Assembly: GCA_012521815.1 (NCBI GenBank)
Contig: JAAYLR010000030.1
Span: forward strand, 5,434-69,433
Direction of reading: 5' to 3'
Length of the DNA: 64,000 nucleotides
From: Acidobacteriota bacterium
GTDB lineage: Bacteria; Acidobacteriota; Thermoanaerobaculia; Multivoradales; JAGPDF01
Of this stretch, positions 13,494 through 35,550 are shown piece by piece. The notes beneath the pieces are model-generated. The model saw only the letters and a list, made by a program, of their open reading frames with translations. It searched no databases and had not been told where the DNA came from. Within the stretch, counting starts at the first letter, position 1. Each line of letters opens with the position of its first letter. The translations under genes were made by a program, and so were the position numbers.

Positions 13494-13506
13494 GGAACGC
13501 CTCCGT

Positions 13507-14625
13507 TCAGAGCTTCGCCGCGATGGCGCGGCCGAGATCGAGGGTGGTGGCGCTGCCGCCCATGTCGTAGGTGCGGACCTGCCCCTCGGCGATCACCGCC
13601 GCGGTCGCCGCCTCGATCCGGCCCGCCATCTCCGTCTCGCCGAGCCAGTCGAGCATCATCTTCGCGGCGAGGATGGTGGCGATCGGGTTGACCTTGTACA
13701 TCCCCGCGTACTTCGGCGCCGAGCCGTGCGAGGGCTCGAAGACGCCGAGCTTCGTGCCGATGTTGCCCGAGCAGCCGAAGCCGAGGCCGCCGACCATCTG
13801 CGCCGCGAGGTCGGAGATGATGTCGCCGTAGAGGTTCGGCGCCACGAGCACCTCGTAGGAGAGCGGGTTCTTCAGCAGCCACATGCAGATCGCGTCGATG
13901 TTCGCGTCGTCGCAGGCGATCTCCGGGTAGTCGGCGGCGACCTTGCGGGCCATCTCGAGGAAGAGCCCGTCGGTGGCGCGCACCACGTTCGCCTTGTGGA
14001 TGATCGTCACCTTCTTGCGGCCGTGCTTGCGGGCGTACTCGAACGCCGCCCGTGCGATCCGCTCCGAGCCGTGGCGGGTGTTGATCTTGCACGAGATCGC
14101 GTACTCGTCGAGGGCGCGGCCGGCGAACGGCTTGAACGCCGGGGCGTTGCGGCCGAGCACCTCGGCCACCTCGGCCGGCACCGGCGAGAACTCGACGCCG
14201 GCGTAGAGGTCCTCGGTGTTCTCGCGGAAGACCACGAGGTCGATCCCCTCGCGCAGGTTGAGCGGGTTGCCCGGATACGCCTTGCAGGGGCGCAGGCAGG
14301 TGTAGAGATCGAACAGCTGCCGCATCCGCACGATCGGCGAGCGGTACTTCAGCCCCTTGCCCTGCAGCTCGGGGACGAGCTCGGCCTCGGCGGTCTTCGC
14401 CGGCTTCGAGGTGATGGCGCCGAACATCGCGGCGTCGACGCGGCCGAGCAGGTCCACGGTGCGCTGCGGGAAGGCGTCTCCCTCCCGGCACCAGAACTCC
14501 CAGCCGATGTCACCATGTTCGTAGTCGGCCCGGAAGCCGACGGCGTCGAGCACGAGGCGGGTCGCTTCGAGGACTTCGATGCCGATTCCATCTCCGGGCA
14601 GCCAGGCGATCTTGTAGCTCTTCAT
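13507..14625 (-). CDS. isocitrate/isopropylmalate dehydrogenase family protein (LeuB-/tartrate-DH-like)
   Basis: 372 aa from the ATG at 14625 (MKSYKIAWLPGDGIGIEV...NLYGDIISDLAAQMVGGLG). This is a beta-decarboxylating dehydrogenase signature. The ORF 13507..14790 is over-extended. Confidence 0.85.
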   Translation of the reverse strand: MKSYKIAWLPGDGIGIEVLEATRLVLDAVGFRADYEHGDIGWEFWCREGDAFPQRTVDLLGRVDAAMFGAITSKPAKTAEAELVPELQGKGLKYRSPIVRMRQLFDLYTCLRPCKAYPGNPLNLREGIDLVVFRENTEDLYAGVEFSPVPAEVAEVLGRNAPAFKPFAGRALDEYAISCKINTRHGSERIARAAFEYARKHGRKKVTIIHKANVVRATDGLFLEMARKVAADYPEIACDDANIDAICMWLLKNPLSYEVLVAPNLYGDIISDLAAQMVGGLGFGCSGNIGTKLGVFEPSHGSAPKYAGMYKVNPIATILAAKMMLDWLGETEMAGRIEAATAAVIAEGQVRTYDMGGSATTLDLGRAIAAKL

Positions 14626-14788
14626 GGATTCGCTCCGCAGGGGTTGGTGGCCCGTCCGGCCACCGGGGTCGGGCCGCTTCGGCGGCCGGAAACAGGCTAT
14701 CCGCCGGACGTTGCGCCGTCGCCACCCCGCCGGGCGGGAGGCATACAATGCCCTCGACTCTGAACCGCGACCGCGGAGGCGGAACACC

Positions 14789-20014: not shown

Positions 20015-23000
20015 TCCCTGCCGCCACCCGCCGCGCCCTCCCCCTGCTGCTGCTCCTCCTCGCACCGGCCGCGCTCGGGGCCGTGGCGGCGCGCGCCGCC
20101 GACCAGCCGCCGCCGCCCGCGCGTCCGGCCGCCGCCCGCGACGGGGTGACGCTCGTCCCCGACCGCTTCCTCCGCCGCTGGGATCCGGTGACCCTCTTCT
20201 TCCCCACCGTGCAGGGGCCCGAGCGGGGGGGGCCGGAGGCGCACCCGGAGCGCTTCGTCACGATCACCCCCGAACAGCCCGGCGCCTTCACCTGGCTCGA
20301 CGGGCGGACGCTCCAGTTCCAGCCGGCCACCCCCTGGCCGGCGCTCGCCGAGGTGACGGTGCGGGCGGGCGAGCGGCGCTTCCCGCTCGCCGTCCTCCTC
20401 TCCGCGCCGGTGGCGAGCCACCCGGCCGACGGCGCCGAGGGGCTCGCGCGGCTCGACGAGATCACGCTCACCTTCTCCGATCCGGTCGACCCCGCGGCGC
20501 TCGCCCGGGCGGTCACGGTCGAGATCGCCCCGCTGCCCGGCGCCGGGAGCGAGGGCGCCCGGCGCCTCGCCCCCGGGGAGGTCACGGTCAAGCCGCTCCC
20601 GCCCGACCCGGAGGGGAACCACCGGTATGCGCTCCGCCTCCCCGGCCCGGTGCCGGGCGGACACCGCCTCCACCTGCGGCTGGGGCTCTCCCCCGCGGCC
20701 GGCGAGCCCGGCCTCGCCGCCGAGCTCGGCTTCGCCACCGCCATCCCGTTCCGCGCCCTCGCCTTCGGCTGCCGGAGCCGCCAGCTCCCGGTGCTGCCCG
20801 CGGGCGCCCTCTACCCGGCCGCGCAGGCGCTCGCCTGCGAGGGGGACGACCCGGCGGTGGTCGTCGACTTCTCGGCGCTGCCCCGGACGCTCGGGATCGT
20901 CGAGGCGAAGAACCTCGTCCGCCTCTCCCCGCCGGTCGCCGACCTGACCGCCACCCTCTCCGGCCGCCGCCTCGAGCTGCGCGGCGCCTTCACGCGGGAG
21001 AGCGCCTACCGGGTCCGGCTCGTCCCGTCGCCGCTCTCCGACGAGGAGGGCCGGCCGCTCGACCTCGGCGGGGCCAACGAGCTGACCCTCGCCTTCTCCC
21101 GCCCGAGCCCGTACCTGCGGCTGGCCGCCAGCACCGGGATCGCCGAACGGCGCGGGCCGCAGATGATCCCGCTCACCGGGCGCGGGGAAGAGCGGATCGA
21201 CCTCCGGATCCACCGGATCGACCCGCTCGACCGCGCCTTCTGGCCGTTCCCCACGACCCCGGTCGCGGTGGACGAGGGGCAGCGCCCCCCCGGCCCCGGC
21301 GAGCGCCCGGAGCCGTGGACGCAGCCGCAGAGCGGGCCGGAGGCCGCGGAGATCGCGGCCCGGATCGTCGCGCTCGGCTCCCCGGCGCTCTCCGCCCTCG
21401 TCGACCTGCCGCTCCGGCGCGACGGCGGCTCGGCGAGCTTCGGGCTCGACCTGCAGCCGCACCTCGCCCGGATCGCCGGCGAAGGGGCCCCGGGGACCTA
21501 TCTCGTGGGCCTCCGGCGCCTCGGCGGCGGCGCGGAGCGGCACTACCTCCGGCTCCAGGTCTCCGACCTCGCGCTCACGACGCTCGAAGAGGCGCGGCGG
21601 ACCGTCTTCCTCGTCACCTCGCTCGCCGACGCCCGCCCGGTCGCCGGCGCCGAGGTGCGGGTGGAGGGGGTGCGCTGGGCGGGCGGCCGTCCGAGCTGGA
21701 TCGACCTCTTCCGCGGCCGCACCGACGGCACCGGCCGCGTCGCCTGGGACGCCCCCGGCTCTCCCGGCCGGGCGCATCAGCAGGTGGCGCGGATCGTGGT
21801 GGCGGCGGGCGACGACCGGCTGGTGCTCGACCCGCAGCACCCCGCCGAGGCGTACCGCGACGGACGGTGGCAGGCCGACGACGGCGGCTGGCTCCAGTGG
21901 ACGCAGGAGCCCCTCGAGTGGCGCGGCGAGGAGGTCGAGCGGCTCGCCCACCTCTTCACCGAGCGGCCGGTCTACCGCCCCGAGGACCCGGTGCACCTGA
22001 AGGCGTACCTGCGCACCCGCACCGGCGGCCGGCTCGCGCCGCTCGCTACCGAGGGGGTCTTCGTGATCGACGGCCCCGGCGACCTCGTCTGGCGCTACCC
22101 GGTCGAGCCGGCGGAGAACGGCTCCGTCTACCTGCGCTTCGAGGAGCCCGACCTGCCCACCGGCACCTACCGGGCCCGGTTCGAGGCCCTCGACGACCAG
22201 GGACCGGTGCGGGGCACGGTCTCCTTCCGCAAGGAGGCGTACCGCCTCCCCCGTTTCGAGGTGCGGCTCGACGGGCCGGAACGGGTGCCGCTCGACCGCC
22301 CGTTCGATCTCCGGCTGACCGCCACCTACTACGCCGGCGGCCGCGTCGCCGCCCGCCCCGTCGAGTGGCGCGTCACGCAGTTCCCGTACGCCTGGAGCCC
22401 GCCCGGGCGCCCCGGCTTCCACTTCTCCTCCGACGCCCGCTTCTCCGGCGAGAGCCGCTTCGAGGCGACCCCGGCGTTCGCCCGCGCCGACCTGACCGAC
22501 GAGGACGGCGGCGCCCGGCTCCGGCTCGACCCGGCGCTCGAGCCGACCGCCCAGCCGCGCACCTACGTGGTCGAGGCCACGGTGGTCGACGTCGACGAGC
22601 AGACGGTGAGCGCCACCCGGCAGGTGGTCGCGCTCCCGCCCCTCCTGCTTGGCCTGCGCGTGCCCCGGTATCTGGAGGAGGCCGGCGCGCTGCGCCCCGA
22701 GGTGCTCGTGCTCGGCCCCGACGCCGAGCCGCTCGCCGGCCAGCCGGTCACGGTACGGCTCCGCCAGCGCCGCTGGCACTCCCACCTGCGCGCCTCGGAC
22801 TTCACCGACGGCGTGGCCCGCTACGTCACCGAGATGGTCGAGGAGAACCTCGCCGAGCAGCGGGTGACGAGCGGGACCGAGCCGGTCACCGCCGGCTTCA
22901 CCCTCCCCGAGGCCGGGGTCTACGTCGTCGAGCTCGAGGCGCGCGACCGCCTCGGCCGCACCCAGCGGGTGGCGGTCGACCTCTTCGCGGGCGGCGGCGA

Positions 23001-25824
23001 GCCGGTCGCCTGGCCGCGGCCGGCGACGCCGGTCTTCCACGTCACCCCCGACCGCACCCGCTACCGCCCCGGCGACACCGCCCGGCTCGTCCTCCAGAGC
23101 CCGTTCCAGAGCGGCGAGGCGCTGGCGATCGTCGAGGCGCCCGACGGCGTCCGGTACGAATGGCTCCCGGTGCGCAACGGCCAGGCCGTCCTCTCGCTGC
23201 CCGTCGCGGGGAGCTGGACCCCGAAGATCCCGGTCCACTTCCTCCTCCTGCGGGGCCGCCTCGCGGGGACCCGGCCGCTCCCCGGCAACGCCACCGACCC
23301 CGGCCGCCCCGCCACCTTCGGGGCGACCGTCTGGCTGGAGGTCGAGCCGCGCGCCCACCGCCTCGACGTCGCGCTCGCGCACCCGACACGCGCCCGGCCC
23401 GGGGAGGAGATCGAGATCGAGGTCCGCCTCGCCGATCCCGACGGTCACCCGGCCGCCGGCGAGGTCACCCTCTGGCTCGTCGATCAGGCGGTTCTCGCGC
23501 TCGGGCGCGAGCAGCGGCTCGATCCGGTGCCGAGCTTCCTCGGCCAGCCGCGCTCCCGGTGGAGCGCCCGCGACACCCGCGCGCTCGTCTTCGGCTTCCT
23601 CCCGTTCACCGGCCAGCCCGGCGGCGACGAGGGGGAGGAGGCGGGCTCGCTGCTCGACCGGCAGACGGTGCGACGCAACTTCCAGCCGGTGCCGTTCTAC
23701 GAGCCGGCGCTCGCGGTCGGCCCCTCCGGTGTCGCCCGCGTGCGTCTGACGCTCCCCGACGACCTGACGAACTTCATGGTGCGCGCCAAGGCGGTCTCCG
23801 GCGCCGCGCGGTTCGGCTGGGCCACCGGCCGGATCGAGGTCCGCCTGCCGGTCCTCGTCCAGCCGGCGCTGCCGCGCTTCGTGCGCCCCGGCGACCGTTT
23901 CGTCGCCGGCGCGGTCGGCCGGGTGCTCGACGGCACCAGCGGGGCCGGCACCGCCGAGGCCAGGGTGGCGGGCGTCACCCTCGACGGCCCCGCGAAGCAG
24001 GCGCTCGCCTGGGAGAGCGATCGCCCCGCGCTTGCGAGCTTCCCGCTGAGCGTCCCGCCGGACGCGACCGGCGAGGCGCGGATCCGGATCGGCGCCGAGC
24101 GACGCGCCGACGGCGCCGGCGACGCCTTCGAGCTCACGCTGCCGATCCGCCCCGACCGGGAGCGCGAGCTCACCCGGGAGCTCACCCGGCTCGCCCCCGG
24201 CGGTGCGCTCCGCCTGCCGGCGCCCGCCGGCGCGGTGCGCCCGGGGAGCCTGCAGCGGCGCCTCCTGCTCACGACCGAGGCGCGGGTGGCGGCGCTCGCC
24301 ACCGGCCTCGACTTCCTCCTCGACTACCCGCACGGCTGCACCGAGCAGCGCCTCGCCGCCGCCCGCGCCCAGCTCGCGCTCGCGCGCTTCCGCGAGCTGC
24401 TCGGACGCGAGGAGGGCGCGGCGCGGCTCGCTCGCGCGGTGCGCGACACCCTCGACTGGCTGCCGCTCGTCCAGCAGCCGAGCGGGCTGTTCGCCGGCTG
24501 GCCCGGCGGCACCGGCTCGGTGACCCTCACTGCCTGGACGGTCGAGTTCCTCGCCGAGGCGGCCGAGGCCGGGCACGCGGTCGAACCCGGGGTGCGCGAC
24601 GCCGCCCTCCGGGCGCTCGCCCAGGCGCTCCGCTCCGACTACTCGGAGCTGCTCGCCGGCGAGGAGTGGGCCGAGCGGACGGCGGCACTCCGCGCCCTCG
24701 CCCGCGCCGGACGGTTCGATCCGGCGTACGGCAACGAGCTCGCCCGCCGCGCCCAGTTCCTCGACCTCGAGGGGCGCGCCAACGTCCTCGCCGCCTTCGA
24801 GCGCGGCGGCGCGGCGACGGCTCCGGCCGTGAGCCCGCTCGCCGACTCGCTCTGGGAGGGGATCGGCGTCCGGCTCCATCAGGGAGAGGAGCTCTTCGGC
24901 GGCCTCACCGGCGACGAGCGGACGCGCGATCCCCGGCTCCTCCCCTCCGAGACACGGACGATGGCGCAGATGCTCCGCGCCCTCCGCCCGCTGCCGCGGG
25001 AGGGGGAGCGGGAGCGGCGCTTCACGCTGCTCGCCGACGCCCTCGTGGCGCGCGGGCGCGGCGACGGCTGGGGGAGCACGAACGCGAACGCGGCGGCGAT
25101 CCTCGCCCTCTCCGAGCTGCTCGCCGAAGGCGGCGACGGCCCCGCGGTGCGCGCCGAGCTGCGGCATGCCGGGCGCCACGAGCCGCTCACCGTGGACGGC
25201 CGCGCGCCCGCCGTGCACTGGCGTTCGGCGGCGGCGGGCGAGGTCATGGTCGAGCTTCCGGCGACGGCCGCGGCCCCGCTCTCCGCGGTGAGCGAGGCCT
25301 CCTGGATCCCGGCCGCCTCCGGCGCGGAGGCCGCGGCCCGGCAGGCGGGGTTCGTCCTCCGCCGCACGCTCGAGATCGAGCGGCACGGAGCCCCTGCCGA
25401 GGCGCCGCCGGAGCGGGTGACGATCGACCGTCCGGGAAGCGAGGTCGCGCTCGTGCAGGGCGAGATCGTCGAGGAGCGGATCCAGATCGTGAACCCGGAG
25501 GACCGGCACTTCGTCGCGGTCGTCGTGCCGCTCGCCGCCGGCTTCGAGCCGCTCAACCCGGCGCTCGAGACCGCGCCGCCGGAGGCCCGCCCGCGCGGCC
25601 GCGACACCCTCGAGCCGACCTACGCCTTCTTCCTCGACGACCAGGCGGCGTTCTACTTCGATGCGCTGCCGAAGGGGACGTACGACCTCTTCTTCCGCGT
25701 CCGCGCCCAGATCCCCGGCCGCTTCGTGCAGCCGCCGGCGAAGGTCGAGATGATGTACGACGCGAGCGTCGCGGGCACGAGCGCCGGCGCGACGATCGAG
25801 ATCGCGCCCCGGCCCGAGCGGTGA
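20011..25824 (+). CDS. yfhM: bacterial alpha-2-macroglobulin family protein (thioester-containing, YfhM/ECAM-like)
   Basis: 1937 aa with signal peptide. Thioester motif YPHGCTEQ at about 24337-24348. Multi-domain MG-like N-terminus. Followed by a pbpC homolog with a GTGA start/stop overlap. Confidence 0.85.
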   Translation: MIPAATRRALPLLLLLLAPAALGAVAARAADQPPPPARPAAARDGVTLVPDRFLRRWDPVTLFFPTVQGPERGGPEAHPERFVTITPEQPGAFTWLDGRTLQFQPATPWPALAEVTVRAGERRFPLAVLLSAPVASHPADGAEGLARLDEITLTFSDPVDPAALARAVTVEIAPLPGAGSEGARRLAPGEVTVKPLPPDPEGNHRYALRLPGPVPGGHRLHLRLGLSPAAGEPGLAAELGFATAIPFRALAFGCRSRQLPVLPAGALYPAAQALACEGDDPAVVVDFSALPRTLGIVEAKNLVRLSPPVADLTATLSGRRLELRGAFTRESAYRVRLVPSPLSDEEGRPLDLGGANELTLAFSRPSPYLRLAASTGIAERRGPQMIPLTGRGEERIDLRIHRIDPLDRAFWPFPTTPVAVDEGQRPPGPGERPEPWTQPQSGPEAAEIAARIVALGSPALSALVDLPLRRDGGSASFGLDLQPHLARIAGEGAPGTYLVGLRRLGGGAERHYLRLQVSDLALTTLEEARRTVFLVTSLADARPVAGAEVRVEGVRWAGGRPSWIDLFRGRTDGTGRVAWDAPGSPGRAHQQVARIVVAAGDDRLVLDPQHPAEAYRDGRWQADDGGWLQWTQEPLEWRGEEVERLAHLFTERPVYRPEDPVHLKAYLRTRTGGRLAPLATEGVFVIDGPGDLVWRYPVEPAENGSVYLRFEEPDLPTGTYRARFEALDDQGPVRGTVSFRKEAYRLPRFEVRLDGPERVPLDRPFDLRLTATYYAGGRVAARPVEWRVTQFPYAWSPPGRPGFHFSSDARFSGESRFEATPAFARADLTDEDGGARLRLDPALEPTAQPRTYVVEATVVDVDEQTVSATRQVVALPPLLLGLRVPRYLEEAGALRPEVLVLGPDAEPLAGQPVTVRLRQRRWHSHLRASDFTDGVARYVTEMVEENLAEQRVTSGTEPVTAGFTLPEAGVYVVELEARDRLGRTQRVAVDLFAGGGEPVAWPRPATPVFHVTPDRTRYRPGDTARLVLQSPFQSGEALAIVEAPDGVRYEWLPVRNGQAVLSLPVAGSWTPKIPVHFLLLRGRLAGTRPLPGNATDPGRPATFGATVWLEVEPRAHRLDVALAHPTRARPGEEIEIEVRLADPDGHPAAGEVTLWLVDQAVLALGREQRLDPVPSFLGQPRSRWSARDTRALVFGFLPFTGQPGGDEGEEAGSLLDRQTVRRNFQPVPFYEPALAVGPSGVARVRLTLPDDLTNFMVRAKAVSGAARFGWATGRIEVRLPVLVQPALPRFVRPGDRFVAGAVGRVLDGTSGAGTAEARVAGVTLDGPAKQALAWESDRPALASFPLSVPPDATGEARIRIGAERRADGAGDAFELTLPIRPDRERELTRELTRLAPGGALRLPAPAGAVRPGSLQRRLLLTTEARVAALATGLDFLLDYPHGCTEQRLAAARAQLALARFRELLGREEGAARLARAVRDTLDWLPLVQQPSGLFAGWPGGTGSVTLTAWTVEFLAEAAEAGHAVEPGVRDAALRALAQALRSDYSELLAGEEWAERTAALRALARAGRFDPAYGNELARRAQFLDLEGRANVLAAFERGGAATAPAVSPLADSLWEGIGVRLHQGEELFGGLTGDERTRDPRLLPSETRTMAQMLRALRPLPREGERERRFTLLADALVARGRGDGWGSTNANAAAILALSELLAEGGDGPAVRAELRHAGRHEPLTVDGRAPAVHWRSAAAGEVMVELPATAAAPLSAVSEASWIPAASGAEAAARQAGFVLRRTLEIERHGAPAEAPPERVTIDRPGSEVALVQGEIVEERIQIVNPEDRHFVAVVVPLAAGFEPLNPALETAPPEARPRGRDTLEPTYAFFLDDQAAFYFDALPKGTYDLFFRVRAQIPGRFVQPPAKVEMMYDASVAGTSAGATIEIAPRPER

Positions 25825-28184
25825 GCCGCCGGCGCCGGCGCGCGCTCGCGCTCGCGATCCTCGCCGCGCCCCTGCTCGGGGTGGGGGGGCTCGCGCTCGC
25901 GCGCTCGGGCCTGGAGGCGCCGGCGCCGACGCTCCTGGTGCGCGACCGCGCCGGGCAGTTTCTCGGCGAGCTCCCCGCGCCGGGCGACGAGCGGCTCGGC
26001 TACTGGCCGCTCCCCGAGCTGCCGGCGCGGGTGGCGGCGGCGACGCTCGCGCTCGAAGACCGCCGCTTCGCTCGCCATCCCGGCGTCGATCCGCTCGCGA
26101 TCGCCCGCGCCTTCGTCCAGAACCGGGCGGCCGGGCGACGGCTCTCGGGCGCCTCGACGATCGCGATGCAGGTCGCCCGCCTGCAGCACCCCGGGCCGCG
26201 CGGCTACCTCCGCAAGGGGGTCGAGGCGGCGACCGCGCTCGCCCTCACCGCCCGGCACGGACGCGAGGCGCTCCTCGCCCACTATCTGCGGATCGTCCCC
26301 TACGGCCACCGGATCCACGGGATCGCCTACGCCGCCCGGCGGTACCTCGACAAGCCGGTGGCGGATCTCTCCTGGGCCGAGATCGCCTTCCTCGCCGCGA
26401 TCCCGCAGGCGCCCGCCCGCCACGACCCGTTCACCGCCGCCGGCCGCGCCCGGGCGGTGCGGCGGGGGGAGCGGATCCTCGACCGCCTCGCCGCCGACGG
26501 CCTCCTCGACGCCCACGACCTCGCGGTGGCGCGCGCCGAGATCGCCCATCTCCGCCTCCCCTGGCAGGCGGCGCGGCCCCGCGCCGCGCTCCACCCGCTC
26601 CTCGCCCTCGAATCGCGCCTCCCGCCGGACGCCCGGGCGACCGCGCCGCTGCTCACCACCACGCTCGCCCTCGAGCTGCAGGAGGAGGTCGAGGAGCTCG
26701 CCGCCCGCGCGGTGCACGCCGCCGCCGACCGGGGGGCGGGCAACGCCGCGGTCCTCGTGGTCGCACGCGGCAGCTGGGAGGTGCTCGCCGCGGTCGGCTC
26801 GACCGGCTACTACGACGCCGGCCGCGCCGGGGCGATCGACTACCTGCGGGTGCCCCGCTCCTCCGGCTCGACGCTCAAGCCGTTCGTCTACGCCCTCGCG
26901 CTCGAGCGGGGCGAGATCTCGCCGGCCACCATCCTCGACGACCTCGGCCCCGGCCCGGGCGGGATCGTCAACGCCGACGGGCGGTTCCTCGGCCCGCTCC
27001 TGCCGCGCACCGCGCTCGCCAACTCGCGCAACGTCCCCGCGGTGGACCTCCTCGCCCGGCTCGGCCTCGACCGCGTCTACGGCCTCTGCGGCGACCTCGG
27101 CCTCCACGACGGCCGCCTCCCGGCGCGCCGCTACGGGCTCGGGCTCGCGATCGGCTCCCTGCCGGTGAGCCTCGAACGGCTCGTCGGCGCCTACACCGCG
27201 CTCGCCGGAGACGGCCGCCGCCACGAGCTCGTCTGGCTCCGCCCCCGCCCCGGCCAGCCGCCGCCGGGGGCGCCGGTCCGCCTCTTCTCCGAGGAGACGG
27301 CCCGCCTCCTGACCCTCTTCCTCGCCGATCCGCAGGCCCGCCTGCCAACCTTCCCGCGGATGGGCGCGACCGAGTACCCGTTCCCGGTGGCGGTGAAGAC
27401 CGGCACCTCCTCCCGCTACCGCGACGCCTGGACGATCGCCTGGTCGGACCGCTACCTCGTCGGCGCCTGGGTCGGCGACCCCGACGAGCGGCCGATGAGC
27501 CACCTCTCCGGCTACCGGGTCGCCGCCGGGCTCGTGCAGGAGGTGCTCCTCCACCTCCACGGCGCGCGGAGCGACGGGATCGGCCAGCCCGACTTCCCGG
27601 CGCCGCGCGGCTGGCGGCGGGAGCGCCTCTGTCCGCTCTCGGGCGGCCGCGCCACCGCCGCCTGCGGCACCGCACAGCTCGAATGGCTGCCCGCCGACGC
27701 CCCCTCTCCCCCCGAGTGCACCGCGCACCGTCTCGTCGCCCTCGATCGCCGCACCGGCCGGCCGGCCCGGCCGGGCAGCCCCGACGCGACGGTCGAGTGG
27801 CGCTCGGAGCTCCGCCTTCCCCCGCGCTACGCCGGCTGGCTCGCCGCCCGGGCGCGGCCCGCTGCCGAGGAGGATGCTCCCGGAACGGCTTTCCTGCCGC
27901 AGCTCGCCGGCGTCGAGGCGCGCATCGAGGTGCTCTCCCCGGAGCCGGGCAGCCGCCTGCTCCGCGACCCGGAGACGCCGGAGGCGCTGCGCACCGTCGC
28001 GCTGCGCGCCGTCGTCGATCCCCCTTCCCCGCAGCTCGTCTGGTACCTCGACGGCCGCCCGCTCGCCACCGTGGAGAGCCCGTACGAGCTCCGCTGGCGG
28101 CTCGAGCCCGGCGAGCACGTCTTCCAGGCGCGCCTCCCCTTCGGCGGCGCCCGCTCCCGGCTGGTGCGGGTGACGGTGGAGTGA
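25821..28184 (+). CDS. pbpC: penicillin-binding protein 1C (transglycosylase/transpeptidase)
   Basis: 787 aa. The GT51 transglycosylase N-terminus has EDRRFARHPGVD and RLSGASTIAMQVARL. The transpeptidase domain has the SxxK motif GSTLKP. GTG start overlaps the A2M stop. Confidence 0.85.
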   Translation: MSRRRRRALALAILAAPLLGVGGLALARSGLEAPAPTLLVRDRAGQFLGELPAPGDERLGYWPLPELPARVAAATLALEDRRFARHPGVDPLAIARAFVQNRAAGRRLSGASTIAMQVARLQHPGPRGYLRKGVEAATALALTARHGREALLAHYLRIVPYGHRIHGIAYAARRYLDKPVADLSWAEIAFLAAIPQAPARHDPFTAAGRARAVRRGERILDRLAADGLLDAHDLAVARAEIAHLRLPWQAARPRAALHPLLALESRLPPDARATAPLLTTTLALELQEEVEELAARAVHAAADRGAGNAAVLVVARGSWEVLAAVGSTGYYDAGRAGAIDYLRVPRSSGSTLKPFVYALALERGEISPATILDDLGPGPGGIVNADGRFLGPLLPRTALANSRNVPAVDLLARLGLDRVYGLCGDLGLHDGRLPARRYGLGLAIGSLPVSLERLVGAYTALAGDGRRHELVWLRPRPGQPPPGAPVRLFSEETARLLTLFLADPQARLPTFPRMGATEYPFPVAVKTGTSSRYRDAWTIAWSDRYLVGAWVGDPDERPMSHLSGYRVAAGLVQEVLLHLHGARSDGIGQPDFPAPRGWRRERLCPLSGGRATAACGTAQLEWLPADAPSPPECTAHRLVALDRRTGRPARPGSPDATVEWRSELRLPPRYAGWLAARARPAAEEDAPGTAFLPQLAGVEARIEVLSPEPGSRLLRDPETPEALRTVALRAVVDPPSPQLVWYLDGRPLATVESPYELRWRLEPGEHVFQARLPFGGARSRLVRVTVE

Positions 28185-28207: not shown

Positions 28208-29035
28208 ATGAGCCACTCCCCCGAGCACCCCTTTCTCGCCGCCGTCGTCCAGATGACCTCCACCTCCGACGAGGAGGAGAACTGGCGGCAGGCGAAGGCG
28301 TTGATCGAGAAGGCCGCCCGGCTCGGCGCCGAGCTCGTCGTGACGCCGGAGAACACGAACTTCCTCGGCCCCCACGAGGAGAAGGTCCGCCGCGCCGAGC
28401 CGCTCGACGGCCCGACCTGCGGCCGCTTCGCCGCGCTCGCCGACTCCCTCGACCTCTTCCTCCTGCTCGGCTCGTTCAACGAGGCGAGCGACGAGCCGGA
28501 GCGCTGCTTCAACACGAGCGTGCTCTTCGGCCAGGAGGGGGAGATCCTCGGCGTCTACCGGAAGATCCATCTCTTCGACATCGACCTCGGCCCCTCGGCC
28601 GGCTTCCGCGAGTCGGCCACGGTCAAGCCCGGCGACGAGGTGGTCGTCGCGGAGACCCCGCTCGGCCGCCTCGGCCTCTCGATCTGCTACGACCTCCGCT
28701 TCGGCGAGCTCTACCGGGAGCTGGTCCAGCGGGGCGCCGAGCTGATCGCGATCCCGTCGGCGTTCACCGCGACCACCGGCAAGGCCCACTGGGAGGTGCT
28801 CGTCCGCGCGCGGGCGATCGAGACCCAGACCTGGGTGCTCGCCGCCGGCCAGCACGGCGCCCACGACGACGGCGGCCTGCGCGAGAGCCACGGGCAGTCG
28901 CTGATCGTCGACCCCTGGGGGCAGATCGTCGCCGCCGTCCCGGACGGCCCCGGCGTGGCGCTCGCCGAGATCGATCTCGACCGCGTGCGCCGGGTGCGCG
29001 CCGGTCTGCCCGTCGCCCGTCACCGCCGCCTCTGA
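28208..29035 (+). CDS. carbon-nitrogen hydrolase family protein (nitrilase/amidase, Nit-like)
   Basis: 275 aa with the E-K-C triad context: TPENT (Glu), K in VYRKIHLFD, and Cys in LGLSICYDLRF. Confidence 0.85.
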   Translation: MSHSPEHPFLAAVVQMTSTSDEEENWRQAKALIEKAARLGAELVVTPENTNFLGPHEEKVRRAEPLDGPTCGRFAALADSLDLFLLLGSFNEASDEPERCFNTSVLFGQEGEILGVYRKIHLFDIDLGPSAGFRESATVKPGDEVVVAETPLGRLGLSICYDLRFGELYRELVQRGAELIAIPSAFTATTGKAHWEVLVRARAIETQTWVLAAGQHGAHDDGGLRESHGQSLIVDPWGQIVAAVPDGPGVALAEIDLDRVRRVRAGLPVARHRRL

Positions 29036-29102
29036 ACCGCGGCATCCCGTCACCGGAAGTCGCCTTTCGCAGACTGGAACCCGCCGGTAAGCGGCGCCAC
29101 GC

Positions 29103-29516
29103 TCAGAAGACGAACGCTTCGCGGTAGTCGAGGGCCGACGAGGCCTGATAGGTGGCGCCGCCGGGTCCGGTCGCGGTGAGCCAGGCGTGGGCCTCGCCGC
29201 GGCCCGCGCCCGGGCGCAGGCCGAGATGGAGCCGCACCTCGAGGCCGCAGCGCGTCCAGAGCTCGAGGAGCAGGAGCGCCCGCTTCAGGCAGGGGCCGTG
29301 CCCGCGCGGCGGGAGCCACGGCAGGAGGCGCTCCACCGCCCCGGCCAGCCGCTCCGGGCGCGCGAGGAGGCGGGGCAGCGGCCGGGCGCGGCCCGCCTCG
29401 CGGAGCGTGGCGACGAGGGCGTCGAAGGCGAGACGGCGCTTCCGCCGGGCGAGCCGCACGGAGGCGGCGAGGATCGCCGGCAGGGACGCGAGGAGGAAGA
29501 GGGCGTTGGCGATCAA
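29103..29516 (-). CDS. lasso-peptide-B2-like transglutaminase-fold protein (Transglut_core3), orphan
   Basis: 137 aa. GPCLKRALLLLELWTRCGLEVRLHLGLRPGAGRGEAHAWLTATG matches the CLxRALAL...G[IV]R...AHAWVE core of lasso B2 / McjB-C-like cysteine proteases. TTG start without SD, so the true start may be further downstream. Confidence 0.55.
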   Translation of the reverse strand: MIANALFLLASLPAILAASVRLARRKRRLAFDALVATLREAGRARPLPRLLARPERLAGAVERLLPWLPPRGHGPCLKRALLLLELWTRCGLEVRLHLGLRPGAGRGEAHAWLTATGPGGATYQASSALDYREAFVF

Positions 29517-29587
29517 ACCGGAGGTCGAGCGTACACCGCCGCGCGCCCGGCGCGAACCGCGCGCCGCCAGGGCGGCGATCTGAGAAG

Positions 29588-31354
29588 ATGCCCGCCATGA
29601 GCTTCCGCGCCTCCGTCCGCCGCCTCTCCTTCGCGTTCCTGCTCCTCCTGCTCGGAGGCCCGGTCGCGCGCCTCTCGCCCCTGCCGGCGCAGACCGGCGA
29701 GGGGACGTACGGCTCGTTCCTCGATCAGATCGAGGTCGAGGTCGTGGAGGTGGACCTGCTCGTCTCCGGCCGGGACGGCCGGCCGCTCCGTGATCTCCGG
29801 CGCGAGGAGTTCACGCTCCTCGTCGACGGCGAGCCGGTCGAGATCCGCTACTTCGCCGCGCCGTCCCCCGAGCCCGGCGCGAGTGCCGCGGCGGAGCCCG
29901 GTGCAGAGGCCGAGGGCGAGCAGCCCGACGCCGAGCCGGCGATCGTCGTCGCCTACCTGGACGAGACCGCGATCCGGCCCGGGCCGCGCAACCAGCTCCT
30001 CGAGGCGTTCGGCCGCGTTCTCTCCAGACGCCTGGCCGCCGGCGACCGGGTGATGGTGGCGCGCTTCGACGAGGGCCTCCGCCTCCTGACCGAGCTGACC
30101 ACCGACGAGGAGGTCGTCCGGAGCGCGCTCGCCCAGGCGGCGAAACGCGCCCCGGCGAGCCTCGTCGCCCAGATGGAGGAGGGCGCGCTGCTGCAGGAGC
30201 TCGAGAGCAGCGGCGGGGGCGGGGGTGGCGGCGGCGGGGGCGGCGCGCTCCGGAACGACGACGAAGAGATGGAGGCGATGCGGCTCCGGGTCGAGGTCGA
30301 GTCGCGGGCTTCCGCCGACGCCGACCGGCAGCGCCGCGCGACGGCGGCCCTCGCCGACCTCGTCGGCGCGCTCGGCGGTCTGCCCGGGCGCAAGACGGTG
30401 CTCCTCGGCAGCGGCGGCTTCCTCACCCGGCCCGGCGCCCGCCTCGGCGACATCTGGCAGCAGCGCTTCGCCGAATTCGACTCCGGCGGCGCGCTGCCGG
30501 GACACGAGTTCGACGCCGAGGCGGGCGGGCTGCAGCACGCCTTCTCCCGCCTCCTGCGCACCGCCCAAGCGACGCGCGTCACCTTCGTCACGATCGAGGC
30601 CGGCGACGCCGCCAGCGGCCTGCCCGACGCCTCCTTCGGCGGCGGCCTCGCGGCAGCGAGTTCCCTCGCCGCGAGTACCGCCGGCCTCGAAGCAAGCGGC
30701 AACCTCGGCGTTCTCGCCGCGGCCACCGGGGGCCGGCGGTTGAAGCTCGAGCCCCGGATCGCCGAGGCGCTCTCCCGGGTCGGAGACGATCTCGACGCCC
30801 GCTACTCGCTCGGCTTTCCGACCGGTCCCGAGGCGGGCACGCGCTTCCACCGGATCGAGGTCCGGGTCGCGCGGGAGGGCGTGCGGGTCGAGCACCGGGA
30901 AGGGTTCCGCCGGCGCGCGGGCGCCGACCGCGCCGTCGACGCGCTCCTCGCCACCGCCGCGCTCGGCGGCACCGAGAACCCGATGGGGGTCACGGTGACG
31001 ACCGGGACCCCGCAGCGCGCCGGCCGCGGCCGGTACTCGCTCGTGCCGGTGGAGGTGAAGGTGCCGCTGCGCGCCGTCACCCTGCTCCCGGAGGGGAACG
31101 CCCAGCGAGGGCGGCTCAGCTTCTCCTTCGCGCTGCGCGACCCGAGCGACCGGCTCGTCCAGCTCGAGCCGCGGCCGCTCACCTTCACGGTGCCCAACGC
31201 GGAGCTCGCCGCCGCGCTGCGCCAGACGATCTCGATGCACGTCGAGATCCCGGTCGCGAGCGGACCTCACCGCCTCGCGATCGGAATCCACGACGAGATC
31301 GGCGACGCCCGCTCCTCTCTCGCCGTCCCGTTCGACCTGCCGCCGGTCCGATGA
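29588..31354 (+). CDS. VWA domain protein of the 'VWFA-related Acidobacterial domain' type, secreted
   Basis: Signal peptide, then IEVEVVEVDLLVSGRDGRPLRDLRREEFTLLVDGEPVEIRYF, the characteristic N-terminal block of that family. Central poly-Gly (11 G). Alternative ATG at 29597. Confidence 0.75.
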   Translation: MPAMSFRASVRRLSFAFLLLLLGGPVARLSPLPAQTGEGTYGSFLDQIEVEVVEVDLLVSGRDGRPLRDLRREEFTLLVDGEPVEIRYFAAPSPEPGASAAAEPGAEAEGEQPDAEPAIVVAYLDETAIRPGPRNQLLEAFGRVLSRRLAAGDRVMVARFDEGLRLLTELTTDEEVVRSALAQAAKRAPASLVAQMEEGALLQELESSGGGGGGGGGGGALRNDDEEMEAMRLRVEVESRASADADRQRRATAALADLVGALGGLPGRKTVLLGSGGFLTRPGARLGDIWQQRFAEFDSGGALPGHEFDAEAGGLQHAFSRLLRTAQATRVTFVTIEAGDAASGLPDASFGGGLAAASSLAASTAGLEASGNLGVLAAATGGRRLKLEPRIAEALSRVGDDLDARYSLGFPTGPEAGTRFHRIEVRVAREGVRVEHREGFRRRAGADRAVDALLATAALGGTENPMGVTVTTGTPQRAGRGRYSLVPVEVKVPLRAVTLLPEGNAQRGRLSFSFALRDPSDRLVQLEPRPLTFTVPNAELAAALRQTISMHVEIPVASGPHRLAIGIHDEIGDARSSLAVPFDLPPVR

Positions 31355-33336
31355 GCCGCGCGCTTCTGCTGGCCGCGCTCGCGGCCTTTCTCGCCATGCC
31401 GCTCGCGGGAGAAGAGCCGCTCCGGGCTCGCGACCTCGGCGGCGCCCGCCCCGAAGCCGCGGCGCTGGCGCTCTCCGGCGGCGAAGGGGGCGACCTGCGG
31501 CTCGTCGTGGCCGCCTGGCCGCTGCCCGAGACCTCCGGCCCGAACGTCCTCGTCGTGGTCGAGGCCGACGGTCCGAGCCTCCTGCGCCGGACCGAGAGCC
31601 CGGCGCTCCCGCTCGAGTGGACGCTCTACGCGCTCGCGGCCGACGGCGCGGTGACCGGTTTCCTCGCCGAAGGGGTCCGCATCGAGGGGCGCGAAGAGGT
31701 GGTCGAGACCGGGGTTCGCTTCACCGCGGCGCTCACCCTGCCGCCGGGGCCGCAGAGCCTGCGGGTGCTGCTGCGGCATCGCGACAGCGGGGCGTTCGGG
31801 GTGCGGAAGGTCGAGCTCACGGTCGAAGAGCCCGCCCGCGGCTTCCTCCTCCTGCCGTCCGCGGCGCGGGCGCCATGGGTCGAGGTTCGGTCCGCCCGGC
31901 TCCCCGACTCTCCCTCCCCCCTCCTCGCGGCGCTCCTCGCGATCGCTCCGGAGGCGCTCCCGCTCGCCCGTCCGGAGGGGGAGGGCGAGCTGCTCGTCTG
32001 GCCGCCACCGGCCGCTCCGCCGCGCGTCGAGCTCACCGTCGAGGGGATGCCGGACCCGATCATCGGCGCGCAGCTGCTGCCCGGCGACGCCGCGCCGCCC
32101 GTCGGGCTCGCCCGCTACCGGCTGCCGGCGCTCCCGGCGCCGCCGGGCCTCTACCAGCTCTCGCTCGCCGGCGCCGCCCCGGGTGGCCTGCGGGCGGCGC
32201 TCCTGCCCGGCGGCCAGCCGCCGCCAGCCCGGGGCTGGCCCGCCCTCTTCGGGAGCATCGAAACGATTCTCGCGGCCGACGAGAGCGGCCCCGAGGCGCC
32301 GGAGCGGCCCGCGGCCTCCCGGACCGAGCTCGAACGGAGCCTCCGAAACGCCTATCTCGAGATCCTCGCCGAGCTCGCCGCCGGCCAGCCCGAGGCCGCG
32401 GTGGCCCGGCTGATGGAGCACGAGACCGCCACCGTGGCGCGTGAGCCGCGCGAGGCGCTCCGCTACCTCGATCGCGCGCAGGAGAGCGTGATCGCCCGGC
32501 TCGGGGAGCTCGACCCCGACGCGCTGCTGCCGATCGCCGACCTGCACCGGCGTCTCTTCACGGCGCATCTGACCGCCGGGCACCCCGCGCTGGCCCGGCA
32601 GGCGATGGCCCGGGCCGAGGCCGCCACCCAGCGCTTCGCCGCCCGTGCCGGCACCGAGGACCGGGGCCTCGCCGCGGCCTCGCTGCTAAGCCTCGCGGCC
32701 TCCCTCTTCGACGCGGTCATCCCGCGCCGGGCCGCCGAGCTCGCCGCGCAGGCCGAGAACCTCGTTCCCGGCCACGCCGCCGCGCTCCTCGCGCAGGCGG
32801 TGGTCCTCGAGCGGGCCCAGGAGCACCGCGAGGCCACCGCGGTGCTCGACCGCCTCCTCCGCGCCGACCCCGAACAGCGCGAGGCCCGCCTGCGCCGGGC
32901 ACTGCTCGCCCAGCGGGACGGTTCCCGGAAGGGACCGCAACGGGAGCTCCGCGCGCTCGTGGCGCCGCCGGCACGCGACTGGGTGGCGGCGGTGGCGGCA
33001 CAGGAGCTGGCGCGCACGCTGGTCGCCCGGGGGCAGGCCGAAGAGGCGGTGACGATGCTCGCGGCCGCCGAGGCCCGGCTCGGAGACGCCGGCGGTCTCG
33101 CGGTCGCCCGCGCCTGGGCCGAGGAGCGGGCCGGCCGGCGCAGCGCGGCGCTGACCCATCTCGAACGGATTCCGCCCCCCTCCCGCCTCCACGGCGACTC
33201 CCCGCGCCGCCGCTACGGCCGCTGGCCCGAGGAGGCCCTCCAGGCCGAACGGCGGACCGCGGTCGAAGCGGCGCTCCTGCGCCTGCCGGCGCTCGCCGCC
33301 GCGCTCGCCCGGGAACCCGGGGAGGGCCCCGCATGA
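31351..33336 (+). CDS. secreted hypothetical protein with C-terminal all-alpha/TPR-like region
   Basis: 661 aa with signal peptide MSRALLLAALAAFLAMPLAG. The C-terminal 330 aa are Ala/Leu/Arg-rich helical repeats. ATGA overlap with the upstream VWA gene. Confidence 0.6.
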   Translation: MSRALLLAALAAFLAMPLAGEEPLRARDLGGARPEAAALALSGGEGGDLRLVVAAWPLPETSGPNVLVVVEADGPSLLRRTESPALPLEWTLYALAADGAVTGFLAEGVRIEGREEVVETGVRFTAALTLPPGPQSLRVLLRHRDSGAFGVRKVELTVEEPARGFLLLPSAARAPWVEVRSARLPDSPSPLLAALLAIAPEALPLARPEGEGELLVWPPPAAPPRVELTVEGMPDPIIGAQLLPGDAAPPVGLARYRLPALPAPPGLYQLSLAGAAPGGLRAALLPGGQPPPARGWPALFGSIETILAADESGPEAPERPAASRTELERSLRNAYLEILAELAAGQPEAAVARLMEHETATVAREPREALRYLDRAQESVIARLGELDPDALLPIADLHRRLFTAHLTAGHPALARQAMARAEAATQRFAARAGTEDRGLAAASLLSLAASLFDAVIPRRAAELAAQAENLVPGHAAALLAQAVVLERAQEHREATAVLDRLLRADPEQREARLRRALLAQRDGSRKGPQRELRALVAPPARDWVAAVAAQELARTLVARGQAEEAVTMLAAAEARLGDAGGLAVARAWAEERAGRRSAALTHLERIPPPSRLHGDSPRRRYGRWPEEALQAERRTAVEAALLRLPALAAALAREPGEGPA

Positions 33337-34520
33337 GCCACCGGCGAATCCTCGTCACCCTCCTGCTCGCGCTCGCCTACGTCTTCGGGAGCATCGCCGC
33401 GGCGGCGGCCCTCGAGGTCGCGATCCTCGAGCCGGTGCCCGGCAGCGGCGCCTTCGGCGAGATCCGGGTCGTGGCCGAGGTGCGGGGATCCGAACCGGTC
33501 AGGGAGCTCGAGCTCTTCTTCCAGGGGAAGCGGGTCGCGGCGCGGAGCGCCCCTCCCTGGGTCTTCCGGCTCGACGTCGGGCAGGAGAACATCGACCGCG
33601 CCTTCCGGGTCGTCGCCCACGCGGCGGACGGGCGCACGAGCGAAGCGGAGCTGACGCTGCCGCGGATCCGGATCGATCTCGAGGTCGAGGCCCGGCTGCA
33701 GCAGCTCTACGTCACCGTCACCCGCGGCGGCCAGCGGATCCTCGACCTGCCGCGTTCGCAGTTCATCGTCCTCGACGAAGGGCAGCGTCAGCAGCTCGTG
33801 ACTTTCGAGCGCGGTGACGTACCGCTCACCGCGGTGCTGATGGTCGACTCGAGCCTCAGCATGCGGGGCGACCGGCTCCGCACCGCCCTGCGCGGAGCGG
33901 GGCTCTTCGCCCGCGGGATGGCGCCGCTCGACGAGGCGATGCTGCTCCTCTTCTCCGACCGCCTCCTCTACCGTTCGCCGTTCAGCCACGATCCGGCGGT
34001 GCTCGAGCGCGGCCTCGCGAACGTCGAGGCGAGCGGCGGCACGGCACTCAACGATCATCTCTACCTCGCCCTGCAGCTGCTCGAACGGCGGCAGGGACGC
34101 CGGGTCGTGGTGCTCTTCTCCGACGGCGTGGACGTCGACTCGCTCCTGCCGATCGCGGAGGTCGTCACCACCGCCCGCCGCTCGCAGGCGCTCGTCTACT
34201 GGCTGCGGCTCCGCGAAGGGGGCGGCGACCCGCGGGAGAGCGGCCACATCTCCGTCTGGCGGGACCATGCCGAACACCGCGCGGAGCTCGACGGGCTCGC
34301 CCGGCTGGTGAGCGCCAGCGGCGGCCGGATCATCGATCTCGCCCGCCTCGAAGAGGCCGAGGCGGCGTTCGCCGACGTGCTCGCCGAGCTGCGCGAGCAG
34401 TACGTGCTCGGCTACTACCCGAGCGGCGCCCGGCAGAGCGGCCGCTGGCGCCGGGTCGAGGTGCGGACGGGCGGCAGCGGCCTCGAGCTGCGCACCCGCA
34501 GCGGCTACTTCGACGAGTGA
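33333..34520 (+). CDS. VWA domain protein, 'VWFA-related Acidobacterial domain' type
   Basis: 395 aa with signal peptide. The N-terminal block is VAILEPVPG...LDLPRSQFIVLDEGQRQQLVTFE, with a MIDAS-like DxSxS (VDSSLS). ATGA overlap with the upstream gene. Confidence 0.75.
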   Translation: MSHRRILVTLLLALAYVFGSIAAAAALEVAILEPVPGSGAFGEIRVVAEVRGSEPVRELELFFQGKRVAARSAPPWVFRLDVGQENIDRAFRVVAHAADGRTSEAELTLPRIRIDLEVEARLQQLYVTVTRGGQRILDLPRSQFIVLDEGQRQQLVTFERGDVPLTAVLMVDSSLSMRGDRLRTALRGAGLFARGMAPLDEAMLLLFSDRLLYRSPFSHDPAVLERGLANVEASGGTALNDHLYLALQLLERRQGRRVVVLFSDGVDVDSLLPIAEVVTTARRSQALVYWLRLREGGGDPRESGHISVWRDHAEHRAELDGLARLVSASGGRIIDLARLEEAEAAFADVLAELREQYVLGYYPSGARQSGRWRRVEVRTGGSGLELRTRSGYFDE

Positions 34521-34589: not shown

Positions 34590-34961
34590 TCAGTTCAGGT
34601 GGATGCGGGTCGGACCGTGACCCGATTCGGCCTCGTAGCCGTGCGAGAGGACGAAGAACCAGGCCGAGAAGCGCTCGTTCTCGCTCTCGGTGATGAGGTC
34701 GAAGACGAACTCTCCCTCCACGTCGCCGGCGGCCTCCTCGACGTAGGCCACCTGCTCGGGCTCGACGATCAGCTCCGCCTGCACCCGCTTGCCCCGGATC
34801 AGCTGCACGACGAGCCGCTCCGGCCCTTCACTCGCGAAATGCCAGTGCACGTCGTCGTCGTCGTAGAGCACCGCCTCCGGCGTGCCCGCCCGCAGGATGC
34901 AGTTCGGATGGGCGAGGAGCCAGTTCCAGAAGCCGTCGAACGGGAGGGTCTGCAGGACCAT
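34590..34961 (-). CDS. hypothetical protein (123 aa)
   Basis: ORF MVLQTLPFDGFWNWLLAHPNCILRAG...HGPTRIHLN is a distinct, non-low-complexity sequence. The upstream extension of ORF 34590..37934 is an artefact. Confidence 0.5.
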   Translation of the reverse strand: MVLQTLPFDGFWNWLLAHPNCILRAGTPEAVLYDDDDVHWHFASEGPERLVVQLIRGKRVQAELIVEPEQVAYVEEAAGDVEGEFVFDLITESENERFSAWFFVLSHGYEAESGHGPTRIHLN

Positions 34962-35130
34962 CGCGGCGGCGAGCCTATCGCACCCGCGAAGGCGCCGATC
35001 CCCGCGTGGGAAGGGGACCGCCCCCACCCCGGAGCGTCGGCTCGCCCGCCCGCCCCGCTCCCCCGGCCGGGTGGCGCGCCGGCCCCCGGTCCGGCCGTAC
35101 TCTTCCCGGGAGCCGAGGTTCGCCACGAAG

Positions 35131-35550
35131 ATGCTCCCCCTCCTCGTCCCGCTCGCTTCCCTTCCGGCCGCCGATTCGCTGCTCCGGCGGATCGTGGAGC
35201 AGGTCGCGGCCGCGCTGCCGGAGCTGCGGGTGCTCTGGCCGGAAGAGGAGGGCGGCCTCGGCGCGGCCCTCGCCACCGCCCGCTCGGTGGTCTTCCTCGA
35301 GCACGATCCGGCGGTGATCCCCACCAGCGTCGGGGTCGAGCTCCTGCGGGCCGGCGAGGCTCCGTCCGCCGGCGACGACGGGAGATACGCCGAGCTCCTG
35401 CGCGAGGCCGCGGCTCCCGCTGCGCGGCGCGCCCGCGTGCGGCTGCTCGGCAGCGGCGACGAACCCGCCGCCGAGGCGGCCGAGATCGTCGAGCTCGCGG
35501 TCCGCTGCACCCTGCGCCTCCTCGACGACTGGGCGCTATCGCCCGCCTGA
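35131..35550 (+). CDS. hypothetical protein (139 aa)
   Basis: Third positions are almost exclusively G/C from the ATG at 35131. No homology recognised and no clear SD. Confidence 0.35.
   Translation: MLPLLVPLASLPAADSLLRRIVEQVAAALPELRVLWPEEEGGLGAALATARSVVFLEHDPAVIPTSVGVELLRAGEAPSAGDDGRYAELLREAAAPAARRARVRLLGSGDEPAAEAAEIVELAVRCTLRLLDDWALSPA

Follow-up and report, generated by a model that had tools for sequence, protein, structure and literature searches.

In the Thermoanaerobaculia, a lineage of the Acidobacteriota, peptidase genes of the lasso-peptide B2 type occur both within and outside loci for peptides that are made on ribosomes and modified after translation (RiPPs). This is the setting for the 64,000-nucleotide stretch of contig JAAYLR010000030.1 (assembly GCA_012521815.1) considered here, hereafter the window, in which a stand-alone B2-like gene for a 137-amino-acid (aa) product lies divergent from a translationally coupled trio encoding two von Willebrand factor A (VWA) proteins and, between them, a protein with a helical repeat. 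The B2-like gene is an intact member of its family that evolves under purifying selection, it has no RiPP partner in the 64 kb, and it adjoins a plastic junction on one side and, on the other, a trio that exists independently of it. The explanation favoured here, with a probability of about 55%, is that the gene encodes a detached, still functional B2-type peptidase that stands beside an autonomous VWA operon by descent and acts on a substrate encoded elsewhere. The first-pass annotation of this DNA had described an orphan lasso-B2 gene divergent from a coupled VWA, helical-repeat and VWA operon, and that description stands, as does its placement of the DNA in Acidobacteria, the source belonging to Thermoanaerobaculia; its further proposal, a functional module of protease and VWA proteins, is not supported.

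Sequence, fold and ancestry all place the 137-aa gene within the lasso-B2 family, as had been surmised from its CLKRAL (Cys76) and AHAWL (His110) motifs. Its product exceeds the curated cutoffs of two profile hidden Markov models (HMMs), scoring 44.5 bits against PF13471 Transglut_core3 (cutoff 26) and 37.5 bits against NF033537 lasso_biosyn_B2 (cutoff 33); the latter score is lower, at 33.0, for the B2 protein of a bona fide lasso cluster, L009 (comparison loci are cited by L numbers). Word-sharing homologs number 15 in 5.8 billion proteins, the named ones all from Thermoanaerobaculia; Cys76 and His110 are invariant across 16 homologs, and Ser126 is nearly so. The AlphaFold2 (AF2) model of the protein, with a predicted local distance difference test (pLDDT) score of 92.9, has Cys76 at the start of helix 75-89 and His110 on the adjacent strand 109-116. 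Foldseek matches of this model in the PDB are weak (E >= 0.027) and are mostly transglutaminase-like or papain-like cysteine enzymes, the best being PeiP, PeiW, 3isr, TglA, NATs, vasohibins and FXIIIa. Searched against PDB sequences, the B2 profile has no match even at E = 1, and there is therefore no experimental template for the catalytic triad and no solved lasso B2 structure. McjB-type proteins possess a Cys-His-Asp triad (PMC7533575). In a weak hhalign alignment (E = 0.1) to McjB, Cys76 and His110 pair with Cys150 and His182, and the alignment of the B2 profile ends before Asp194.

The earlier statements that no lasso partners lie within 15 kb and that this is not a lasso cluster both hold, and the former extends to the whole window. 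When all called genes of the 64 kb were scanned against Pfam, no Asn_synthase, PqqD or ABC transporter was detected, and only housekeeping and metabolic functions came back, including alpha-2-macroglobulin with PbpC, a CN_hydrolase, a pyridoxal-phosphate (PLP) decarboxylase, an OPT transporter, AceK/IDH and a tricorn-like protease. Iterated HMMs for lasso-type Asn synthase, PqqD, NTP_transf_5, HprK-like/ScmC and radical SAM (rSAM)/SPASM proteins had no match in the window either. For precursors, an initial regular expression proved too strict, as it missed a positive control, and was replaced by a relaxed leader/core version that recovers the controls L009, L010 and L005 but has no match in the window, L001, L006 or L014; in the window, phmmer queried with the precursor of L009 gave no match either (best E = 0.26). 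A search of 29517-29587 and its flanks for small precursor-like open reading frames (ORFs) found that the 71- and 67-bp gaps beside the gene hold no independent ORF of at least 20 aa, and gaps of this size are too small for a precursor. The orthologous loci that were fetched (L001, L006-8, L014, L041-44) also contained no B1, cyclase or precursor. Since B1, cyclase and precursor are missing from its context, the B2-like gene should not be counted as part of a lasso system.

The neighbourhoods of B2 genes elsewhere were surveyed for the word-sharing homologs, for 24 reference-genome loci and for one metagenome locus, with annotation by tblastn, iterated HMMs and Pfam. Within the comparison set of 25 other loci that carry the same B2 subfamily, 12 are RiPP-linked and 13 are partner-less, and the trio is present in none (0/25); when the orphan clade is added, B2 is partner-less at 14 of the 26 distinct loci examined. 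Canonical lasso clusters (context i) occur in L005, L009/10 and L015, each with PqqD, a lasso-type Asn synthase and NTP_transf_5, to which L005 and L009 add an HprK-like gene. A 59-aa ORF of L009 passes the NCBIfam lasso-leader model (YEPPRLERLG...TTVL/GPTTQIPTE; ...YEPPRLERLGDLRTTVL/GPTTQIPTE..., with the slash at the marked boundary), and the Val(-2) leader and HprK-like kinase of that locus fit acidobacterial phosphorylated lasso peptides (PMC10368454). In L005, an uncalled 36-aa-tail ORF (13398-13508, + strand) immediately upstream of the Asn synthase, YRSPRLVCYGSLVDLTQLSGSVVVDSGAFGPQTGGT followed by a stop, is likely a lasso precursor overlooked by gene callers. Context (ii) comprises rSAM/SPASM, PqqD and HprK-like/ScmC genes without a cyclase, in L004/16, L018, L021, L025, L028, L033 and L036, with L004:10001-12718 as an example, as well as in L030, whose short contig shows rSAM only. 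This arrangement resembles Haft's 'SynChlorMet' (Scm) cassette with the addition of a B2-type peptidase, and it may represent a class of RiPP other than lasso peptides in which a lasso-type enzyme serves as leader peptidase. Two side observations concern these RiPP-linked loci. Large Peptidase_C25 (gingipain-like) proteins adjoin lasso or rSAM clusters in five loci, as a recurring and unexplained neighbour, and in L018:9898-16778 (chromosome-level metagenome-assembled genome (MAG) OY969426.1) the B2, NTP_transf_5, C25 and upstream MetH genes are each split across frames, which points either to decay of the RiPP cluster or to indel errors of long-read sequencing.

Partner-less B2 genes (context iii) fall into recognizable syntenic groups. 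In group A, five MAGs (L019, L022, L023, L032, L034) have B2 between hemF, for coproporphyrinogen III oxidase, and the atp operon, the latter side showing ATP-synt_A, ATP-synt_C and an ECF sigma factor, along with small conserved unknowns of ~160 aa; in most of these loci B2 is at about 10000. In group B, three to four MAGs (L024, L027, L031 and probably L026) have B2 convergent with NTP_transf_5 followed by Polysacc_synt_2 (CapD/WbpM-like), such that the lasso-associated nucleotidyltransferase is retained without PqqD or cyclase. Several further partner-less B2 genes of this context are singletons. Detachment of B2 from its partners is thus recurrent, having at least two other syntenic groups in Thermoanaerobaculia besides the clade of the window. 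That clade (context iv; at least 75% aa identity) consists of the window/L044, L001-3, L006-8/L014, L041 and L042-43, and is the sole context with an adjoining trio.

The trio is a separate unit, a predicted secreted, MIDAS (metal-ion-dependent adhesion site)-bearing VWA assembly encoded by one translationally coupled operon, and the VWA, middle and VWA order is conserved in at least six lineages. As reported at first pass, ATGA overlaps lie at 31351 and at 33333, and a divergent spacer of 71 bp separates the B2-like gene from VWA1; a similarly short divergent spacer is found in the orthologous loci L001, L006 and L014. The labelling of the outer two products as 'VWFA-related Acidobacterial domain' proteins agrees with their TIGR03436 (acidobact_VWFA) scores of 151 bits for VWA1 and 140 bits for VWA2 (cutoff 81.25); VWA2 also scores 52 bits against VWA_2. 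Only VWA2 has a complete MIDAS (DSSLS...GGTAL...SDGVD), largely conserved across five lineages (the window, L001, L038, L039 and L040), with DASTS in L039 and GGSAI in L038, whereas that of VWA1 (D-E-T-A-I) departs from the DxSxS...T...D pattern. Residues of about 207-217 in VWA1 (30200-30235) form a run of 11 glycines, a variable low-complexity insert in the VWA region that L038 lacks and that L001 and L006 have in shorter or interrupted form. The middle protein belongs to a small family (8 matches) and had been called a helical-repeat protein, a description that suits half of it: its AF2 model (overall pLDDT 73.7) begins with a signal helix, continues with a beta-rich N-terminal half predicted at moderate to low confidence, and has a confident all-alpha repeat at residues 324-654 (pLDDT about 90). 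Its tetratricopeptide repeat (TPR) likeness is one of architecture only, because AF2 gives an alpha-alpha repeat while matches to Pfam TPR models are sub-threshold, the best being TPR_14 at 18.6 bits (cutoff 23.5). All three proteins begin with hydrophobic, signal-peptide-like N-termini and are probably secreted.

Distant trio operons occur in L038, L039 and L040, with genes for VWA1, a middle protein 31-37% identical to that of the window, and VWA2, all of similar sizes; in L038 and L040 the called genes overlap at every trio junction, in L039 at the one between the middle gene and VWA2. Not one of these three loci has a B2-like ORF (0/3), the best B2-profile E value on six-frame ORFs with filters off being 0.35. 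Parts of the surroundings are retained, L038 having the CN_hydrolase (72% identity) and PbpC remnants and L039 the PLP decarboxylase after VWA2. Because such distant trios exist without B2, the trio is older than B2 at this site and independent of it. As a separate observation, two tandem VWA1 paralogs (581 and 577 aa) precede the middle gene at L038:6514-10004, which indicates that the operon can grow by duplication.

The B2 proteins of the orphan clade form a monophyletic group (100% bootstrap) whose sister is the L009 lasso B2 (94% bootstrap), a protein 56-57% identical to the B2 of the window. At the four loci with both flanks sampled (window, L001, L006, L014), B2 lies between the divergent trio and the CN_hydrolase gene, whose ortholog is present in L001, L006, L014 and L044. 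The linkage of B2 and trio is confined to this one shallow clade, at about 77% DNA identity. Within it, the junction between B2 and CN_hydrolase varies in content from lineage to lineage. In L044, the sole locus returned by a metagenome scan with the window B2, it is occupied by an OmpA-like gene, and the 67-bp spacer of the window aligns to the ribosome-binding site and first ~10 codons of that gene, with its ATG changed to AGA; the spacer thus reads as a deletion scar, a sign of strain-level gene loss. A different view of the L044 gene, as ancestral and equivalent to a 445-aa gene after the CN_hydrolase in L038, was rejected, as the two are not homologous. In four of the five sub-lineages, B2 heads a glycosyltransferase (GT) cassette of GT4 and/or PMT_2 genes that points away from the trio. 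An extra 615-aa gene of L001, considered as a divergent lasso cyclase, belongs to that cassette and was rejected as a cyclase, being a PMT_2/ArnT-like GT-C glycosyltransferase with no copy in the window. The window lineage branches outside, as sister to all GT-bearing lineages (71% bootstrap), and gain and loss of the cassette are for that reason equally parsimonious.

The B2 frame is uninterrupted in the window and in each further orphan-clade locus retrieved, copies that differ from one another by about 20-25% at the aa level. Against L001 and L006, its dN/dS is 0.27-0.31, next to 0.20 for the CN_hydrolase gene and 0.21-0.39 for the trio genes, and against L044 its pN/pS is 0.21 (four synonymous and two non-synonymous changes), with neighbouring genes at 0.08-0.33. 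Wherever 14 or more of 15 homologs agree on a residue, the protein has it too, and it is as distant from the outgroup as its sisters are, without rate acceleration. Together these comparisons indicate that the gene is under purifying selection.

The adjacency of B2 and trio is best explained, from comparative sequence data, as a recent chance neighbourhood inherited as synteny within the clade, and not as a conserved functional module. If the favoured reading of a detached peptidase is right, B2 would have lost its RiPP partners in one shallow Thermoanaerobaculia clade; it now sits at a hypervariable junction between the CN_hydrolase gene and an older, self-sufficient trio. Cys76, at the helix start, and His110, on the adjacent strand, would perform endopeptidase cleavage, presumably in the cytoplasm, and the substrate would be provided in trans, most likely, by analogy with characterized B2 proteins, as a RiPP-type precursor presented by a RiPP recognition element (RRE)/PqqD protein (B1) encoded elsewhere. 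Possible partners exist in the class, as lasso-type cyclases are common in Thermoanaerobaculia. Several points weigh against this reading. Characterized B2 proteins require a B1/RRE partner, and none lies within the 64 kb. Among the 223 matches to the L009 cyclase none carries the locus tag of the source MAG (GX178_), the names being sparse and the MAG incomplete. The alignment of homologs contains no invariant Asp after His110, so that the third triad residue is not located. Many homologs carry a 'PDG' motif whose Asp is replaced by Gly in the window, P0001 and P0003 and by E, N or H in certain other sequences; since this position also varies in at least one RiPP-linked member, the B2 of L009, which has E, that Asp may not be catalytic. 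Selection is estimated coarsely, as dN/dS is rough at about 75% G+C and the close-pair pN/pS relies on only 6 substitutions. Lastly, B2 and trio adjoin in every orphan-clade lineage with the upstream flank on the contig (window, L001, L006/L014, L042-43), and because the window keeps this adjacency even though it lacks the GT cassette, a functional link between the two within this clade is conceivable.

Such a link had been proposed at first pass as a processing or maturation module, in which the B2-like protease would mature the secreted VWA, helical-repeat and VWA assembly from a common divergent promoter. The persistence of the divergent short-spacer layout and the similar constraint on B2 and trio are in its favour; however, the neighbourhood analysis detected linkage only inside the one shallow clade, the trio being absent from the 25 other B2 loci and B2 from the three distant trio loci. 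At a depth of about 77% DNA identity, synteny of B2 and trio is expected by descent alone. Moreover, B2 has no signal peptide and all three trio proteins are apparently exported, which would place the peptidase and its proposed substrates in different compartments; in the clade, B2 is co-directional with the glycosyltransferase genes and not with the trio; and a promoter and terminator scan of 28900-29750, of a kind that is uninformative for this phylum, detected neither promoter nor terminator, and no sigma-70-like consensus in the 71-bp spacer. The module is consequently regarded as very improbable. That B2 instead works with the glycosyltransferase cassette (GT4, GT-C/PMT_2, YhhN), for example by processing or anchoring a protein or lipid-linked substrate of envelope glycosylation, is unlikely though still credible. 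It is directly upstream of and co-directional with these genes in 4/5 sub-lineages, with gaps of 58-85 bp and an ATGA overlap in L001, the PMT_2 orthologs are 84% identical between lineages, and another partner-less B2 group adjoins Polysacc_synt_2 and NTP_transf_5. The window B2 would then be a leftover at a junction whose OmpA-like gene has since been deleted, yet B2 is intact and constrained both there and in the 98% identical L044, neither of which has the cassette. The cassette may also be a later insertion beside B2, given the branching of the window lineage outside the GT-bearing group; its content is itself variable, and linkage of B2 to glycosyltransferases occurs in 0/25 other B2 loci.

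Also improbable is a relic reading, in which the gene would have no function, would descend from a lost lasso or RiPP cluster and would not have accumulated disabling mutations yet. The lack of partners in the 64 kb, the gene loss and replacement at the adjoining junction, the related B2 copy of L018 that is frameshifted along with its neighbours, and the Gly at the 'PDG' position of the window would all suit a relic, but they must be set against a frame intact across the clade, the dN/dS of 0.27-0.31, the retention of all family-invariant residues and, with low counts, a pN/pS of 0.21 even between 98% identical strains. A broader idea, to which only a slim chance is given, is that B2-type peptidases have escaped from RiPP clusters several times in Thermoanaerobaculia (the trio/GT clade, the hemF-atp group and the NTP_transf_5/Polysacc_synt_2 group) and were kept by selection for a non-RiPP task, such as that of a cysteine peptidase or transamidase, in the cytoplasm or close to the membrane, with envelope proteins or glycoconjugates as substrates, here the products of GT4/PMT_2 or the VWA proteins before export. 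A role of this type, if true, would give the Transglut_core3 scaffold a new function, and nothing in the present data requires a non-RiPP substrate.

Table 1. Features of the locus, contents of the junction beside B2 across the orphan clade, and Peptidase_C25 genes next to RiPP-linked B2 loci. Coordinates without a locus number refer to the window.
Feature	Position	Strand	Description
B2-like gene	29103-29516	-	137 aa, TTG start; stand-alone lasso-B2-type/Transglut_core3, Cys76 and His110 intact
Divergent spacer, B2-like gene to VWA1	29517-29587		71 bp
VWA1	29588-31354	+	588 aa, TIGR03436, poly-Gly insert, degenerate MIDAS
Middle gene	31351-33336	+	661 aa, beta-rich N-terminal half and TPR-like helical repeat
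VWA2	33333-34520	+	395 aa, TIGR03436, complete MIDAS
Junction between B2 stop and CN_hydrolase stop	29036-29102		67 bp, hypervariable; deletion scar
CN_hydrolase (nitrilase-superfamily amidase)	28208-29035	+	PF00795, 213 bits; flank anchoring synteny
Junction cargo, window			None
Junction cargo, L044 (97-98% identical strain)	L044:10451-11686	-	411-aa OmpA + F5/8-type-C (discoidin) gene
Junction cargo, L001			PMT_2 (GT-C); start overlaps B2 stop (ATGA)
Junction cargo, L006 and L014			GT4 + PMT_2 + YhhN
Junction cargo, L041			GT4 + start of PMT_2; short contig, begins at B2
Junction cargo, L042/43			GT4; contig ends
Peptidase_C25 neighbour	L004:12934-16485
Peptidase_C25 neighbour	L005:9201-13250
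Peptidase_C25 neighbour	L009:6757-7842
Peptidase_C25 neighbour	L015:4975-7842
Peptidase_C25 neighbour	L018:14132-16778

Because the G+C content of the window is ~75%, ORFs are abundant on every strand, and genuine genes were chosen by their third-position GC (GC3), the periodicity of which (0.92-0.96) backs all four ORFs of the B2-like gene and trio at the coordinates of Table 1. The CN_hydrolase gene has no part in any function of B2 or the VWA proteins. Ahead of it is a long co-directional run of genes (14711-28184) in which every junction is a 4-bp overlap, and which includes a 1767-aa ORF without a Pfam match (14711-20014), a 1937-aa bacterial alpha-2-macroglobulin (A2M; 20011-25824) and a PbpC-type PBP1C (25821-28184). 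A2M and PbpC form a classic gene pair, for which the large Pfam-less ORF upstream is an unusual partner. Downstream of the trio are two small genes, of 123 aa (34590-34961, - strand) and 149 aa (35101-35550, + strand), that are conserved in L001 and have no Pfam match; L001 and L014 have a DUF4397 gene between VWA2 and these two genes, which the window does not.

Among known systems, the B2-like protein is closest to the split-B type B2 proteins, which correspond to the C-terminal domain of McjB and include PadeB2 and BsfB2 (PMC10368454), with which it shares the HMM family, a length of about 130-150 aa, the CLxRAL and HAW motifs and a transglutaminase-like fold. It differs from them in having no B1/PqqD, cyclase, precursor, kinase or exporter gene in the 64 kb, in its position at a hypervariable junction among housekeeping-type genes (in sister lineages, at the head of a glycosyltransferase cassette) and in that a third triad residue could not be placed. 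For genome mining and automatic annotation, this case warns against taking a match to 'lasso peptide biosynthesis B2 protein' as a sign of a lasso cluster; in Thermoanaerobaculia, B2 genes that are intact and maintained by selection also occur on their own. The pairing of B2 with VWA genes is by itself fairly ordinary. The trio, in turn, bears a loose resemblance to the BatA/BatB/BatC operons (Bacteroides aerotolerance), in which VWA and TPR proteins act in the cell envelope and are likewise co-operonic. In contrast to Bat operons, neither the trio nor the other genes of the window match MoxR, DUF58 or any Bat-specific Pfam family, the genes are ordered VWA-TPR-VWA, the N-termini are signal-peptide-like, and hydropathy gives no transmembrane-like segment in mature VWA1 or VWA2. 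The nearer relation is to TIGR03436, a paralogous family expanded in Acidobacteria, of which the two VWA proteins are ordinary members, being acidobacterial, apparently secreted and well above the model cutoff. What distinguishes them is that two members here flank a beta plus TPR-like protein in a coupled three-gene operon, a cleanly delimited arrangement that offers a cleaner unit for the study of this family of unknown function.

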